In this document: piece by piece, positions 11,734-35,582 of the stretch | How the letters are laid out: each line of letters begins with the position of its first letter | How positions within the stretch are numbered: the first letter of the stretch is position 1 | Assembly (NCBI GenBank): GCA_029004655.1 | Contig: JAQVYP010000001.1 | Span: 1-38,761, forward strand | Direction of reading: 5' to 3' | Length of the DNA stretch: 38,761 nucleotides | DNA from: Oscillospiraceae bacterium | GTDB lineage: Bacteria > Bacillota > Clostridia > Oscillospirales > Acutalibacteraceae | Translations under genes and position numbers: made by a program | Notes under the pieces: model-generated | What the model saw: only the letters and a program-made list of their open reading frames with translations | Database searches by the model: none | What the model was told of the DNA's origin: nothing

Positions 11734-12273
11734 ATGAAAGCCACAGGTATAGTTAGAAGAATCGACGATCTCGGTCGTGTTGTTATCCCCAAGGAAATCC
11801 GCCGTACAATGCGTATTCGGGATGGAGACCCGTTAGAAATCTATACGGCAGGCGACGGCGAAGTTATTTTTAAAAAATATTCACCAATTGGAGAACTCTC
11901 CGCCATGGCTATGCAGTATGTAGATGTGTTGGTTAAATGCACTGAATTCCCAATAGTCGTTTGCGATCGTGATCATTGCGTTGCCGCGGCAGGTACATCT
12001 AAAAAAGAAGTGCTTGAGCGTCGAGTTACGACTTGGTTAGAAGATTTAGTAGAGTCAAGGAAGTCATTTATCAGCGCTAAAGGCAGCCCTGAAGGCCAGC
12101 CGCCACTTGAGGGAGTTGACCACAATGCAGCAATTGTAATCCCCATATTAAGTGCGGGCGATATAGCCGGTTCGGTAATAATGCTTTCAAATGATAGCGC
12201 GGTAATACCAAATGAATGTGATATAAAACTAGTAACAGTTGCAGCAGGTTTTCTTGGTAAACAAATGGAATAA
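11734..12273 (+). CDS. spoVT: Stage V sporulation protein T (AbrB-type N-terminus plus GAF-like domain)
   Basis: 179 aa. MKATGIVRRIDDLGRVVIPKEIRRTMRIRDGDPLEIY is the SpoVT/AbrB swapped-hairpin DNA-binding domain. The length fits SpoVT rather than the ~95-aa AbrB. RBS AAAGGAGA. Confidence 0.85.
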   Translation: MKATGIVRRIDDLGRVVIPKEIRRTMRIRDGDPLEIYTAGDGEVIFKKYSPIGELSAMAMQYVDVLVKCTEFPIVVCDRDHCVAAAGTSKKEVLERRVTTWLEDLVESRKSFISAKGSPEGQPPLEGVDHNAAIVIPILSAGDIAGSVIMLSNDSAVIPNECDIKLVTVAAGFLGKQME

Positions 12274-30707: not shown

Positions 30708-32843
30708 TTAAAAATACATCTTAATACAAACATCCCATATGCCGTTAAACAACACAAACCCGGAGACTACAAAGGCGACTGTATTATAAATAGCTTTGTT
30801 GACATTGTTTTTGATTTTAGGAAATCCTATTACAAATATAAATGGGAAAACCAGTGGAAGAAGATATCTAGGTTGGCAACCAGCAACCGAATCCGACCCC
30901 ACTGCTGTAAAGCTAATATACAATGCAGTTACAACAAGCAACACAGCAATAAAGCAAAAAAACGACGTTATAGATTTAAATAATACATTTGATGTGAGTT
31001 GGTCGTATTCGTTTTTGTCTGTTAGTGCAACACCTGTCAACAACGCTAAAAGCACAAGATGGTGATCTGACATTCCAAGATATGCTAAGAAATTCATAAA
31101 TCCGGATGATTGTTCAAAAGAAAGATATCCTTTTATGAACCTAAAAAATGTCTTTGCATATTCAAATGGATTAGCCAATATATATTTTACCTGTTCCAGC
31201 GAGTTTACATCTGTTCCACCGCGAGTATCTCCGATACCCGGTCCGACTAATATAAACGGTAATGCAAATGTAGCTAAAGGTAACAGCGCTCCTGCACAAA
31301 CGCTAAATCGAAACCATTTACACATTTTTTCAGTTTTAAATTTAGTCTTTGGCATTAACAGTAAAATGCCCATGACAACGAAATAAACCGCTTTGGATCC
31401 GACACCAATTAAAAAACTGCCAACAATTATAATCCAATCTAAGGCACTGATTTTTTTATAGGGTTCTTGAACTTCACTAAAAAAGTATGCAAATCCTAGC
31501 ATCAAAAACGATGTCACCCATGCGTCATAAGTATATGAGCTGGCAAGAAAAACTTGCGTTGGAAGTAGAGCTATTACGGTCAAAATCATCTTTCCCGATT
31601 TAAGCTTCCTAATGGCAAAATAAACCACGATGCAATATGCAATCATGTTACCTAGTCTGCCGAAAATGAATATCCATTTGAATGAAAGGCCTAAACTTCT
31701 TCCTATAAACAAACCAACCGCACATCCGGTATACCCAATTTTCCTATATTGGTCAAAAATTGTTCCACGAGCTTGAGTGTTTATTGAACCTTGAGCATAA
31801 TTCTCTTGCAGACGTTCAAAAGCTGTATCATTTTCTTGTTCAGAAAATGTAAACGGATATTTATTTGACATTATTTGCAAATCCGCTTTAGTATACATTC
31901 CATCGCCGACAAACGACATACTCAGTGCATTACTGTAATGTATTTGATCGTCCCAGCAGGAGTTAAAAGGTGCATACACACAAAGCAAGGTACCTGCACT
32001 TAAGAAAATAAGAGCAAAGAAACGTTCCGGCTTACTGCCAATATATTCTCTAAAAACAATAATTGCTGAAATTAATAAGCCTATTAAACATGCGAAAATA
32101 TAATATTGTGGCTTATTTCCTTTGTCCAAAACTTTTAAAGCCGGCTTTATTATGAGGCACATTATTCCACATGCTGCAATACTGCAAAAGAAAAAAACCA
32201 GTATTTTTAGATATCCACTAGAAATTGCCAAAGCAACTCTTTTAAAAAAATCTAATATTTTTTCTACATGCTTAAAATAAATAAGTAAACAATTAATTAA
32301 TATAAACATCAAAAACAAACAGATTACTCTGGCAGATTTAAACTGTGGTAATCCGCTTAATACTTCTAGCTTATTTGGGCTTACTTCAACACTTTCCAAT
32401 GTAAATTCCGAATTTATATCTAAGCGCAAATAATTGTATTTATCTGTAGGAAGGTTGCTCATGTATATATTTGAATAAGTCGGTGCATATAATATTTCAG
32501 AATTTGTTTCCGTAAAATTATTGCTTCTACCGTAAAACACTTGAACACTCGCCAAAAGATTAGATGTCTTTTCAAAATTAACAGATATACTGCTAATATC
32601 TAATTTATAATCTGATATATCAATAATCAGTTTCGGATCTTCTGTAGTAGGTGTGAATTTATTGCCATCAACAGTATAACCGTCAGTTGAAATATTCGAA
32701 GTCGAATAAACGTTCTTCTTATCATTTGACATCTGGTTTTGATTTATTGAGGGATTGGTGTTCATTATAACAATCTCTAATAGTACTGCGGCTATTATTG
32801 CCAATGCTATACCTATATAATACTTAAATATGACTTTTTTCAT
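30708..32843 (-). CDS. Large polytopic membrane protein, GT-C/DUF2142-like putative glycosyl- or polymer-transferase
   Basis: 711 aa. Has an N-terminal TM, a ~150-aa extracytoplasmic beta-rich domain, then more than 10 TMs. An acidic loop motif WDDQIHYSNA follows the first TM bundle, resembling the DE..H loop of DUF2142/GT-C enzymes. The assignment is by architecture only. Confidence 0.45.
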   Translation of the reverse strand: MKKVIFKYYIGIALAIIAAVLLEIVIMNTNPSINQNQMSNDKKNVYSTSNISTDGYTVDGNKFTPTTEDPKLIIDISDYKLDISSISVNFEKTSNLLASVQVFYGRSNNFTETNSEILYAPTYSNIYMSNLPTDKYNYLRLDINSEFTLESVEVSPNKLEVLSGLPQFKSARVICLFLMFILINCLLIYFKHVEKILDFFKRVALAISSGYLKILVFFFCSIAACGIMCLIIKPALKVLDKGNKPQYYIFACLIGLLISAIIVFREYIGSKPERFFALIFLSAGTLLCVYAPFNSCWDDQIHYSNALSMSFVGDGMYTKADLQIMSNKYPFTFSEQENDTAFERLQENYAQGSINTQARGTIFDQYRKIGYTGCAVGLFIGRSLGLSFKWIFIFGRLGNMIAYCIVVYFAIRKLKSGKMILTVIALLPTQVFLASSYTYDAWVTSFLMLGFAYFFSEVQEPYKKISALDWIIIVGSFLIGVGSKAVYFVVMGILLLMPKTKFKTEKMCKWFRFSVCAGALLPLATFALPFILVGPGIGDTRGGTDVNSLEQVKYILANPFEYAKTFFRFIKGYLSFEQSSGFMNFLAYLGMSDHHLVLLALLTGVALTDKNEYDQLTSNVLFKSITSFFCFIAVLLVVTALYISFTAVGSDSVAGCQPRYLLPLVFPFIFVIGFPKIKNNVNKAIYNTVAFVVSGFVLFNGIWDVCIKMYF

Positions 32844-33060: not shown

Positions 33061-33249
33061 TTATATATTTACACCTGAAAATATGATAAATGCAACTACA
33101 ACAGCCGCAACAATCAAAGTTAGGCAACCGCTTCCGCCTCGCGGGGGACGTTGTCCGCCACCACCGCCTTTTGTGGATCTGTTAAATGCTTGCATATAGT
33201 GAGTATATCCATCAAACCCTTTGCCATAGAATCCAAAATCTCCACCCAT
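33061..33249 (-). CDS. Tiny Gly-rich, C-terminally anchored membrane protein (YjcZ-like architecture)
   Basis: 62 aa with a strong RBS AGGGAGG. A Gly/Tyr/Phe-rich N-terminus and GGGGGQRPPRGGSG are followed by a single C-terminal TM (LTLIVAAVVVAFIIFSG). The architecture recalls tiny sporulation membrane peptides, but this is not a sequence-level identification. Confidence 0.5.
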   Translation of the reverse strand: MGGDFGFYGKGFDGYTHYMQAFNRSTKGGGGGQRPPRGGSGCLTLIVAAVVVAFIIFSGVNI

Positions 33250-33384: not shown

Positions 33385-33419
33385 AAGAGAAGCACGTCGA
33401 AATTCGGCGTGCTTCTCTT
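33385..33419 (-). terminator. Intrinsic terminator after the 310-aa Cys-rich gene
   Basis: AAGAGAAGCACG - loop - CGTGCTTCTCTT (12-bp stem), followed by a T-rich tract on the minus strand. Confidence 0.6.
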
Positions 33420-33495: not shown

Positions 33496-34428
33496 TTACT
33501 TTTTGTTTTTACACTTGCAAGTTGACTTTTTACCAGAAGCGGAAAACAATTTTGCGGAATTTTTTAAACCTGTATTGGTTAAACTTGTATTGATTAAGCT
33601 TGAATTGGTTACATTTAAATTGGTAGAGCCACAATTTGTGCAAATATCTTCACTTGTAGCTTCAATACATTCTACAGATGGAGCACCGGTACTGGCAACT
33701 GAACCGAATTCAACGTTGACAGCAACACAGACATCCTGTGCCATTGTAAAGAAACAACTTCCATTAACCATTCCGGGACAAGCAGTTTCACCTGATGTTA
33801 CAACGGGAGTTCCACAACAAGTCGTGGTTGTTGTGCCCGCAGTCGCAAATGGCGTTACCGTCACGGGCACACATACCGTTGATGATTCATAAGCAGTTTT
33901 TTCGCATGTTTGTATGCTCTTACATGCAGGTCCGCAAATGCTTAATCCTGATTTAGTTTCGTTCCCACCAAACAAACATACATTATTAGGACCGATAGGA
34001 TAAGGCGTTGTCAGCTCAAAGCAAAAATTCATCACACCGCCAACCTTATTCAAGCCAAAGTCGAGTTTCAGTCCCGGACAGCCTGTCGGAGGATCCGGTT
34101 GAGCAAGTGTGCGTAATTCCACATTACCACCCGGTCCAAAAATTACTTCTTGTGGGTCGCCATCTATCGTTACAGATACATTAACAATTTCATTTTGAGC
34201 AATTTCATCGCATATTCCTAATACCAAATGACTCAAATCTTTAAATTGTGGCAGATCTTGCCCCACGCCGGTGACAATGTAACAAAAGCGTTGATTTTCA
34301 CCCGGTGAAGGATTCAAATTTGAATTTGCTACATCTAATTCTATTAAAAACGGAAGAATTACATCTCCAATAACATTGCTGTAATTGATTTGTAAATTGC
34401 AAGACAATTCTTCACTTTGCTGTAACAT
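33496..34428 (-). CDS. Cys/Thr-rich protein, long paralog (unrecognised N-domain, shared Cys-rich module, basic tail)
   Basis: 310 aa with no signal peptide. Its C-terminal half (STVCVPVTVTPFATAGTTTTTCCGTPVVTSG...ATSEDICTNCG) is paralogous to the whole upstream 108-aa protein. The tail is SLINTSLTNTGLKN...KCKCKNKK. RBS AAAGGAGAA. Confidence 0.7.
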   Translation of the reverse strand: MLQQSEELSCNLQINYSNVIGDVILPFLIELDVANSNLNPSPGENQRFCYIVTGVGQDLPQFKDLSHLVLGICDEIAQNEIVNVSVTIDGDPQEVIFGPGGNVELRTLAQPDPPTGCPGLKLDFGLNKVGGVMNFCFELTTPYPIGPNNVCLFGGNETKSGLSICGPACKSIQTCEKTAYESSTVCVPVTVTPFATAGTTTTTCCGTPVVTSGETACPGMVNGSCFFTMAQDVCVAVNVEFGSVASTGAPSVECIEATSEDICTNCGSTNLNVTNSSLINTSLTNTGLKNSAKLFSASGKKSTCKCKNKK

Positions 34429-34451
34429 AGGGATTCTCCTTTACACACAAT

Positions 34452-34778
34452 TTACAAATTGCAGTTTGTACAAATATCTTCACTTGTTGCATCACCACAT
34501 TCTACAGCCGGAGCGCCGACAGTTGCTACAGCGCCAAAATTAACAGGAACTGCAACACAAAGAGTTTGAGCAATTGTAAAGTAACAGCTTCCGTTAATTG
34601 TCCCAGCGCAGATAGTACTACCGGATGTTATAACCGGGTCACCGCAACAGGTCGTGGTTGTTGCACCAGCTGTTGCAAATGGCGTGACAACTACAGGAAC
34701 ACATACCGTTGCAGATTGATATCCTGTTGCAGGGCAAGTCTGGACAGGATCTTGGAATGCCCTTAAATTAACTGACAT
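34452..34778 (-). CDS. Cys/Thr-rich protein, short paralog (stand-alone Cys-rich module)
   Basis: 108 aa with a perfect RBS AAAGGAGGAA. Sequence: ATVCVPVVVTPFATAGATTTTCCGDPVITSGSTICAGTINGSCYFTIAQTLCVAVPVNFGAVATVGAPAVECGDATSEDICTNCNL. 10 Cys, no signal peptide. Confidence 0.7.
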   Translation of the reverse strand: MSVNLRAFQDPVQTCPATGYQSATVCVPVVVTPFATAGATTTTCCGDPVITSGSTICAGTINGSCYFTIAQTLCVAVPVNFGAVATVGAPAVECGDATSEDICTNCNL

Positions 34779-34808
34779 TTTTATTCCTCCTTTTAAACGT
34801 ATTTATAA

Positions 34809-34836
34809 TACATTATGCCAAACGGACTAGCAGTGT
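34809..34836 (-). promoter_or_regulatory. Sigma-K-like (mother-cell late sporulation) promoter candidate
   Basis: On the minus strand: AC, 17 nt, then CATAATGTA. This matches the Bacillus SigK pattern AC-N16/17-CATAnnnTA. The -10 ends ~30 nt upstream of the ATG at 34778. Confidence 0.3.
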
Positions 34837-35156: not shown

Positions 35157-35582
35157 TTAAGATGTTTTATGATTGTGTTCATGTCCCGATATATGTCCAT
35201 GAGTGTGCTCATGGTTTTCTCCATAACTATCGCTATGGACATGCGAATGGTTATGCATATGCTCATGGGTATGAGCAACACCATCGTGCTCATGCTCATG
35301 AGTATGTGCGTGAATGTGTTTATGGATATGCTGTAATGTTATCGTATCTGTAACGGAGAAATATGTTCCGATTAACATTATGGCAAGCGCAATAAAAAAA
35401 GTAATTTCCGGCATTTCCCGGAATATCAGGAATGAGAACGCCACACCAAGAAAAGGGGCGATTGCATAATATGCGCTCGTTTTTGCCGCACCCAGATTTC
35501 TCTGAGCCAGGATGTAGAAGTATATGCTCAACCCGTAGGCAACGAAACCCAAAAGCAAGGCGGCCAATATCAATAATCGCAT
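35157..35582 (-). pseudogene. Truncated EamA/DMT-type transporter fragment (last ~3 TMs) fused to a His-rich tail
   Basis: 141 aa. Only the C-terminal part of one EamA domain is present (LGAAKTSAYYAIAPFLGVAFSFLIFRE...IMLIGTYF), followed by a 57-aa tail with ~20 His. There is no RBS at its ATG. A well-placed RBS and ATG sit 31 nt upstream (35613) in another frame. Confidence 0.5.

Follow-up and report, generated by a model that had tools for sequence, protein, structure and literature searches.

Cysteine-rich module proteins of Clostridia as candidate spore-surface components

The window analysed here is a stretch of 38,761 nucleotides (nt) from an Oscillospiraceae bacterium (assembly GCA_029004655.1, contig JAQVYP010000001.1, positions 1 to 38,761). 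It encodes two adjacent cysteine-rich proteins of 108 and 310 amino acids (aa), here called the short and the long protein, that share a module of about 95 aa and belong to a family found across several orders of Clostridia. We consider it probable that these proteins are subunits of the spore coat, the exosporium or a spore appendage, made in the mother cell and cross-linked by disulfide bonds, with the short protein as the main building block and the long protein co-assembling via its module. The initial annotation of the window had proposed spore-surface proteins. The conserved promoter motif, the lack of signal peptides, the surface-type fusions and the nearby sporulation genes described below support this proposal, while AlphaFold2 models of the short protein are poor.

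The gene pair and its promoter

The short and the long gene lie head to tail on the minus strand, with coordinates of the open reading frames (ORFs) exactly as in the initial annotation. The features of the pair, in the direction of transcription, are as follows.

34809..34836, minus strand: sigma-K-type promoter candidate, with the -35 'AC' at 34836-34835 or 34834-34833 and the -10 element CATAATGTA at 34817-34809
34785..34793, minus strand: ribosome-binding site (RBS) AAAGGAGGA for the short gene, separated from its ATG by 6 nt, read from the sequence
34452..34778, minus strand: short gene (108 aa), almost wholly module
34461..34745, minus strand: module in the short protein (aa 12-106), from BLASTP
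34429..34451, minus strand: intergenic spacer of 23 nt, free of terminators, holding the RBS of the long gene
34442-34434, minus strand: RBS AAAGGAGAA of the long gene, read from the sequence
33496..34428, minus strand: long gene (310 aa), from the ORF call
33934..34428, minus strand: family-specific N-domain of the long protein (aa 1-165), from family alignment A3
33631..33915, minus strand: module in the long protein (aa 172-266), from BLASTP
33499..33630, minus strand: low-complexity Asn/Ser/Thr tail (aa 267-310) with the basic end KSTCKCKNKK, read from the sequence
33385..33419, no strand assigned: GC-rich hairpin of 16 bp 3' of the long gene, from the terminator scan

The sequence 5' of the short gene, TTAACACTGCTAGTCCGTTTGGCATAATGTA, holds both the AC and the -10 element, separated by 17 nt for the AC at 34836-34835 or by 15 nt for the AC at 34834-34833 (read from the sequence). 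In Clostridioides difficile, the promoters of sigma-E and sigma-K share the mother-cell -10 element CATAnnAT and differ at -35, where sigma-E promoters have 'ATA' and sigma-K promoters have 'AC' (PMC3789822). The sigma-K consensus (-35 AC, spacer of about 16-17 nt, -10 CATAnnnTA or CATAnnAT) fits the window, where a sigma-K-like promoter had been suspected before, as well as the family.

A search of GTDB with one genome per species yields 253 stretches that encode a relative. The locus-level results given here and below (taxonomy, neighbours, gene arrangements, upstream regions) refer to the 80 of these stretches that were listed. For the 80 loci and the window, the sequences upstream of family genes were aligned; the neighbouring genes, family genes excluded, served as controls. 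The position matrix reveals a shared architecture of g-n-A(A/C)CC, about 15 nt, and gCATAnnATg, with CATA beginning at a fixed position about 41 nt before the start codon, where the occurrences of the motif peak. The motif AC-N15-17-CATAnnnT[AG] is found in 48 of 70 family upstream regions, whereas among the neighbouring genes only 10 of 868 have it (Fisher p = 3e-53). Of 52 non-redundant upstream regions 33 have it too, with a mean of 0.5 in shuffled sequences. No enrichment is observed for sigma-E-like motifs with ATA at -35 (2/70 family genes, 2/868 neighbours), for sigma-G/F-like motifs (0/70 and 1/868) or for sigma-A-like motifs (13/70 and 126/868). Given the -35 difference between the sigma-K and sigma-E promoters of C. 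difficile, the family therefore carries a promoter of the sigma-K type, which the window copy fits, and we infer that transcription of the family genes depends on sigma-K.

The terminator scan finds a single hairpin, past the long gene (33385-33419), and none in the 23-nt gap between the genes. The two genes therefore constitute one bicistronic unit, ordered as sigma-K-type promoter, short gene, 23-nt gap, long gene and hairpin, the last being the likely terminator of the unit. Of the two terminators assigned previously, one for each gene, only that of the long gene is retained. The strong RBSs described for both genes are present, and RBSs are strong throughout the family. No RNA element in the region reaches the Rfam gathering threshold.

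We note that in Oscillospiraceae also the 5' untranslated region following the sigma-K-like -10 element is conserved (A.AATGGCnnnnGCCAGAAAGGAG; L003-L080, e.g. L031:7920-8000). It contains an inverted repeat of 4 bp (TGGC/GCCA), immediately adjoining the RBS, that could act as an mRNA-stabilising or translational element. The window is without this repeat.

The module, its family and its fusions

The short protein (10.8 kDa, pI 4.05) begins with MSVNLRAFQD and is rich in Thr (15.7%) and Cys (10 residues, 9.3%). Its first cysteine is C15, and a CC doublet follows the Thr run, in agreement with the approximately ten conserved cysteines noticed initially. The long protein (32.4 kDa, pI 4.5) has 20 Cys and ends in KSTCKCKNKK. 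The modules of both proteins are colinear: aa 12-106 of the short and aa 172-266 of the long protein align without gaps with 68 of 95 residues identical (72%, BLASTP E 3e-37). The codon-aligned DNA of the two modules is 70% identical (200/285); from the first to the third codon position, identity is 78%, 85% and 47%. Near-invariant positions in the family alignments are the cysteines and the beta-strand motifs VCVPVTVTPFA, CCG, NGxCxFTIxQ and CVAVPVxFGA.

The module contains two internal units of about 50 aa, located at aa 13-48 and aa 63-98 of the short protein. An hhalign comparison of aa 12-60 with aa 61-108 matches C15..C45 to C65..C94 (probability 75%, E 2.5e-5), and the strand pattern of the AlphaFold2 model recurs at an offset of +50. 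Judged from these alignments, the module is a tandem duplication of a unit C-x5-Q-x3-V/C-x-VPV-x9-G-x5-C. The best conserved cysteines, C15, C44, C65 and C94, occupy equivalent positions in the repeat and are present in 89-97% of the members; the other six are present in 68-89%.

Neither protein has a transmembrane or signal-like segment, as stated in the initial annotation (maximal Kyte-Doolittle means over 19 residues of 1.65 for the short and 1.26 for the long protein). The same holds for the family: of the 116 members whose N-terminus is complete, none has a signal peptide or a hydrophobic N-terminal stretch.

The N-domain of the long protein contains 9 Cys, all in nearly invariant columns of alignment A3, and the conserved motifs NQRFCY, DLSHxVLGIC, PDPPTGCxGLKFDF and CLFGG. 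It is almost confined to proteins of 260-300 aa that also bear the module. The domain matches nothing in Pfam or the PDB, consistent with its earlier description as unrecognised, and is unrelated to the module by hhalign (probability <1%). Cysteines in the tail past the module occur in 20 of 116 family members, 8 of which have two or more. One protein from a metagenome contig, P0364 (238 aa), consists of an N-domain followed by a helical segment (ALEQTALSHILNAEGEK) and has no module. Its source annotation, PF26595, failed to reappear with the local copy of Pfam, and P0364 could be a real alternative partner or an artefact of frameshift or assembly.

In a word-indexed search the short protein has 31 close relatives and the long one has 335, none of them with a Pfam domain and all of them unnamed or 'hypothetical'. 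An exhaustive HMMER search with the family profile against 1.84 billion representatives finds 660 clusters (50% identity) at E<=1e-3 and 341 at E<=1e-10. The 80 listed genome stretches all belong to Clostridia or unclassified Bacillota, from at least four orders; the phylogenetic distribution, which had been proposed as a check, lends indirect support to a spore-surface role. Hosts include Oscillospiraceae and relatives, Anaerotignum (Anaerotignaceae), Lachnospiraceae (Hespellia), Christensenella (Christensenellales) and Anaerovoracaceae, and the closest named relatives are proteins of Anaerovoracaceae metagenome-assembled genomes (MAGs). Viral contigs yielded no relatives, and a mobile-element origin was rejected on this ground. 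Literature searches for the motif strings found nothing.

The family was indeed not recognised by the libraries searched. Neither window protein matches Pfam or NCBIfam at E<=1. With 150 diverse members searched against Pfam at E<=10, matches are confined to N-terminal passenger domains, with no DUF3794/SPOCS or spore-protein family among them. Profile searches of the PDB give chance matches for the module (E>=0.13) and none for the long protein. AlphaFold2 models of the short protein reach a predicted local distance difference test score (pLDDT) of 58.7 and a predicted TM-score of 0.23 with 32 sequences, with eight beta-strands, and 66.3 and 0.35, respectively, with 150 sequences. Foldseek returns no PDB match for one model and a best E of 0.23 for the other (TM-score <0.33). 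The best matches, beta-hairpin stems of pore-forming toxins, were discarded as an artefact of an extended low-confidence model.

The family genes occur in several arrangements. The short-long pair is found in the same order, with the genes 9-14 nt apart, in loci L001, L002, L038, L046 and L077 (six genomes including the window). Since the pair recurs in at least five other genomes, the tandem arrangement is old and conserved; the local duplication proposed initially is visible in the alignable DNA of the modules and is not a recent one. In seven other loci the short gene is followed by a second short paralog that is divergent and has 9-15 Cys, and in L082 such a paralog follows a gene for a fusion with PMP repeats. 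Most Oscillospiraceae loci have a single short gene. The long module of the window is 72% identical to the short protein of its own genome and 53-61% identical to the modules of other long proteins; in L077 the corresponding values are 76% and 61-71%. This likeness within genomes suggests concerted evolution or co-evolution of two partners, and fits partners that co-assemble.

The divergent short paralogs form a class of their own (100-119 aa, 9-15 Cys, motif SQYADVSVP..LKPYA..G....CCGEP). Each of their genes comes directly 3' of a canonical family gene, whose stop codon often overlaps the start codon, at the following positions.

L016:8372-8710, divergent short class
L055:7573-7911, divergent short class
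L056:8336-8695, divergent short class
L058:8336-8638, divergent short class
L064:4005-4331, divergent short class
L073:5490-5822, divergent short class
L075:3670-3984, divergent short class
L082:1454-1807, divergent short class

In larger relatives the module is always C-terminal. The domains N-terminal to it are Chlam_PMP beta-helix repeats (7 members), Spy0128/FctA isopeptide-pilin-like domains (4 members) and DUF11 repeats (3 members, with four copies in P0160), as well as ubiquitin-like, SpaA-like and Cthe_2159 carbohydrate-binding-like domains. No signal peptide or LPXTG motif was found in the fusion sequences inspected. The combination of surface-type domains with a missing export signal would be understandable for proteins that the mother cell deposits on the spore from its cytoplasm.

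Sporulation genes and other neighbours

The window encodes spoVT (11734..12273; TIGR02851, E 1.6e-61), as the initial annotation had it. Five loci of the Anaerotignum clade (L012, L014, L015, L024, L030), among them that of A. lactatifermentans DSM 14214, have a spoIIGA-sigE-sigG operon at a distance of 1.6-2 kb downstream from the family gene (L012:10197-12973 and the corresponding region of the other four). SigE and SigG score 398.8 and 413.5 bits, respectively, both over the curated cut-offs; sporulation sigma factors are therefore encoded in these genomes. Cryo-electron microscopy images exist of the spores of an Anaerovoracaceae bacterium (PMC12357932).

No neighbour is conserved family-wide in the 80 loci. 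The recurrent ones, namely spoIIGA-sigE-sigG and a VWA protein, are specific to clades. The VWA protein (457 aa; PF00092, E 2.9e-21; L040:6432-7805, minus strand) has a Cys-rich C-terminal half and no signal peptide. Its gene is divergent from the family gene, about 150 nt away, in 12 loci (L040, L006, L007, L010, L011, L017, L018, L023, L031, L032, L041, L050). In L011, L031 and L040, the copies caught by the motif scan, it has an AC-N16-17-CATAnnATG box and a strong RBS of its own. The VWA protein is unrelated to the module by hhalign (probability <1%) and is probably another mother-cell spore-surface protein.

Three further ORFs lie near the pair in the window.

33061-33249, minus strand: 62-aa ORF with a Gly-rich N-terminal half, a C-terminal hydrophobic segment and the strong RBS AAAGGGAGG
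30708-32843, minus strand: 711-aa multi-pass membrane protein (DUF2142), encoded downstream of both the pair and the 62-aa ORF
35157-35582, minus strand: 141-aa ORF matching only the C-terminal half of the EamA transporter domain

The 62-aa ORF has a mother-cell-type -10 element, GCATAATATAG, upstream, with no AC at -35. It had been described as a YjcZ-style peptide, a label that finds no support: neither Pfam nor NCBIfam has a family that the ORF (33061..33249) matches, and this includes YjcZ. The 141-aa ORF has a long His-rich tail with HxH repeats and may be a truncated or split transporter gene.

Interpretation and comparison with known spore-surface systems

According to the interpretation we favour, the mother cell would transcribe the short-long operon late in sporulation. 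Both products, free of export signals, would stay in its cytoplasm and there be built into the coat, the exosporium or an appendage of the developing spore. The all-beta module of 95 aa would serve as the unit of self-association and cross-linking, its approximately ten cysteines forming locking disulfides once the surroundings become oxidising, for example after lysis of the mother cell. The 108-aa protein would then be the main building block, and its 310-aa paralog would join the assembly via its own module, adding the N-domain and the Cys-containing basic tail. In the fusion relatives (PMP, DUF11, isopeptide-pilin-like, ubiquitin-like) the module would anchor a passenger domain that is displayed on the spore.

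Several observations weigh against this interpretation. In the cluster look-ups every database name is 'hypothetical protein'. Several hosts, namely Hespellia, Negativibacillus, Agathobaculum, Christensenella and 'Faecalibacterium' MAGs, are described as non-spore-forming. The neighbours of the pair in the window (DUF2142, the EamA fragment, BioY, BirA, LysR) are housekeeping and membrane genes, not sporulation genes. The strict promoter motif is missing from 22 of the 70 family genes, and the window promoter also fits sigma-A (TTAACA-16-TGgCATAAT, 10/12 positions); between a sigma-K-type and a sigma-A promoter it is the comparison of upstream regions that decides. The AlphaFold2 models have low pLDDT and nothing significant in the PDB by Foldseek. 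Subunits that need an oligomer in order to fold commonly give poor monomer models, which we do not count as evidence here. Finally, some cysteines, e.g. C103-x2-C106, could bind metal instead of forming disulfides.

Many strictly anaerobic gut commensals pass between hosts as spores, yet knowledge of the proteins on the spore surface is almost limited to Bacillus, Clostridium sensu stricto and C. difficile. If the interpretation is true, the family would provide a first candidate for a major component of the spore envelope in four clostridial orders, with 660 unannotated clusters, a clear regulatory signature and a modular display of adhesin-like domains. Cultured hosts are available with Anaerotignum lactatifermentans DSM 14214, Pseudoflavonifractor phocaeensis and Negativibacillus massiliensis, and the family could mark a cryptic ability to sporulate in taxa described as non-spore-forming. 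More tentatively, the module might constitute a previously unrecognised spore-surface polymer, either a fibre or a lattice, that self-assembles, is locked by disulfides, has a fold unrelated to CsxA/SPOCS, ExsY and the endospore appendages (ENA), and doubles as a plug for fusions. Such a polymer would be used by largely uncultured Clostridia of gut and digester (Oscillospiraceae, Anaerotignaceae, Lachnospiraceae, Christensenellales, Anaerovoracaceae), and the C-terminal module would be a general plug for grafting adhesin-like domains onto the spore with no need of secretion or sortase.

Self-assembling Cys-rich proteins, for example CsxA, CsxC, CdeC and ExsY, are an established building material of spore envelopes in clostridia and Bacillus. 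The first three are exosporium and parasporal proteins of Clostridium and Clostridioides that have the SPOCS fold, a beta fold forming strand-swapped trimers, and assemble into disulfide-stabilised lattices. In F-Anchor-3, DUF4183 and four copies of DUF11 are combined with a CsxA-like domain that is predicted to integrate into the exosporium lattice (PMC12357932).

It is conceivable, although unlikely, that the module or the N-domain is itself a very distant Cys-rich member of the SPOCS/DUF3794 fold; the proteins would then fulfil their role in a crystalline lattice of exosporium or parasporal type, in two or three dimensions, and not in a new kind of assembly. In size and Cys count the long protein resembles CsxA (about 33 kDa, 25 Cys), the all-beta module of about 90 aa has the size of a SPOCS domain, and the pairing of DUF11 with the module resembles that of DUF11 with the CsxA-like domain in F-Anchor-3. 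Against this stand the 150 diverse members, none of which matches DUF3794/SPOCS even at E<=10, and the PDB sequence profiles, which find nothing. The Pfam result is weak in this respect, because CsxA and CsxC were assigned to SPOCS by AlphaFold3 and Foldseek, their membership being invisible by sequence. Foldseek likewise gives no PDB match, with models too poor to decide. The module is moreover a tandem repeat of a 50-aa unit, and we are aware of no such description for SPOCS domains.

Rather improbable is a mother-cell product without structural role, such as a redox buffer, a store of cysteine or metal, or a parasporal inclusion protein that builds up next to the spore and outside its envelope. 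Any mother-cell product would suit the sigma-K-type promoter and the missing export signal, a Cys content of about 9% with a C-terminal CxxC could bind Zn or Fe, and the parasporal layers of C. sporogenes CsxC are an existing case of non-envelope crystalline deposits. Fusions to adhesin- or stalk-type domains (PMP, DUF11, isopeptide-pilin-like) make little sense for storage or redox buffering, however, and the conserved two-gene cassettes together with the co-evolution of modules within genomes point to hetero-assembly. The strong conservation of non-Cys residues in beta-strands (VPVTVTPFA, FTIxQ, VPVxFGA) also argues against a store or buffer.

Least probable, and in our estimate very much so, is a function unrelated to sporulation, either as a vegetative cytoplasmic Cys-rich metal-binder or as a precursor of a modified peptide of the SCIFF/ranthipeptide type. 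The Cys/Thr-rich composition resembles some precursors of ribosomally synthesised and post-translationally modified peptides (RiPPs), and the sigma-A-like extended -10 of the window as well as the hosts described as non-spore-forming would suit this alternative. It is the sigma-K-type motif that is enriched, though, not the sigma-A-like one, and the protein lengths of 108-310 aa, the conserved beta-rich core and the large domains in fusions speak against it. The RiPP precursor was rejected because no radical-SAM or other maturase gene is a conserved neighbour in the window or the 80 loci and no NCBIfam model matches, those for SCIFF included.

Taken as mother-cell-made subunits of the spore surface, the proteins can be compared to three known systems. 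With CsxA, CsxC and CdeC they share the occurrence in Clostridia, the lack of a signal peptide and the very high Cys content. They differ from them in having no sequence similarity by Pfam, NCBIfam or PDB profiles, and in their unit, an internally duplicated module of 95 aa that also exists as a stand-alone protein of 10.8 kDa. The homologues of CsxA described in the literature consulted are from Clostridium species, whereas the family is found in Oscillospiraceae, Anaerotignaceae, Lachnospiraceae, Christensenellales and Anaerovoracaceae.

A second comparison is with ENA, of which F-ENA-3a has been seen on Anaerovoracaceae spores (PMC12357932). Like F-ENA (96 aa, 10 kDa), the short protein is small, beta-rich and free of a signal peptide. 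ENA genes have adjacent partners, the major subunit of F-ENA-3 being flanked by F-Anchor-3, with which it shares DUF4183, and accessory proteins dock into the polymer via a shared domain fused to other parts, as is proposed for the fusions of the family. In contrast, neither the window proteins nor the 150 members match DUF3992 or DUF4183 in Pfam, and the short protein begins with MSVNLRA instead of the F-ENA hook M-P-psi-psi-x-P-psi (PMC12357932). Unlike Ena1A and Ena1B of S-ENA it has no Cys before C15, and hence no N-terminal connector bearing Cys of the Ena type; among the short members, 21 of 79 have a Cys in the N-extension. The cysteines are distributed over the core instead of being limited to a connector. 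CsxA, CsxC and CdeC are known to self-assemble in the mother cell into disulfide-stabilised arrays, and the assembly of ENA is covalent or very stable, S-ENA being described as disulfide-linked pili; the proteins of the family would follow the same logic, although by sequence they fall outside both the CsxA/SPOCS and the ENA group.

The third comparison concerns ExsY, CotY and CotZ of Bacillus, which are Cys-rich, made in the mother cell, encoded by paralogous tandem genes and self-assembling into disulfide lattices. These proteins belong to another class, the Bacilli, and no spore-coat Pfam family is matched by the proteins described here. Common to both are the Cys-rich composition and the tandem arrangement of paralogous genes.

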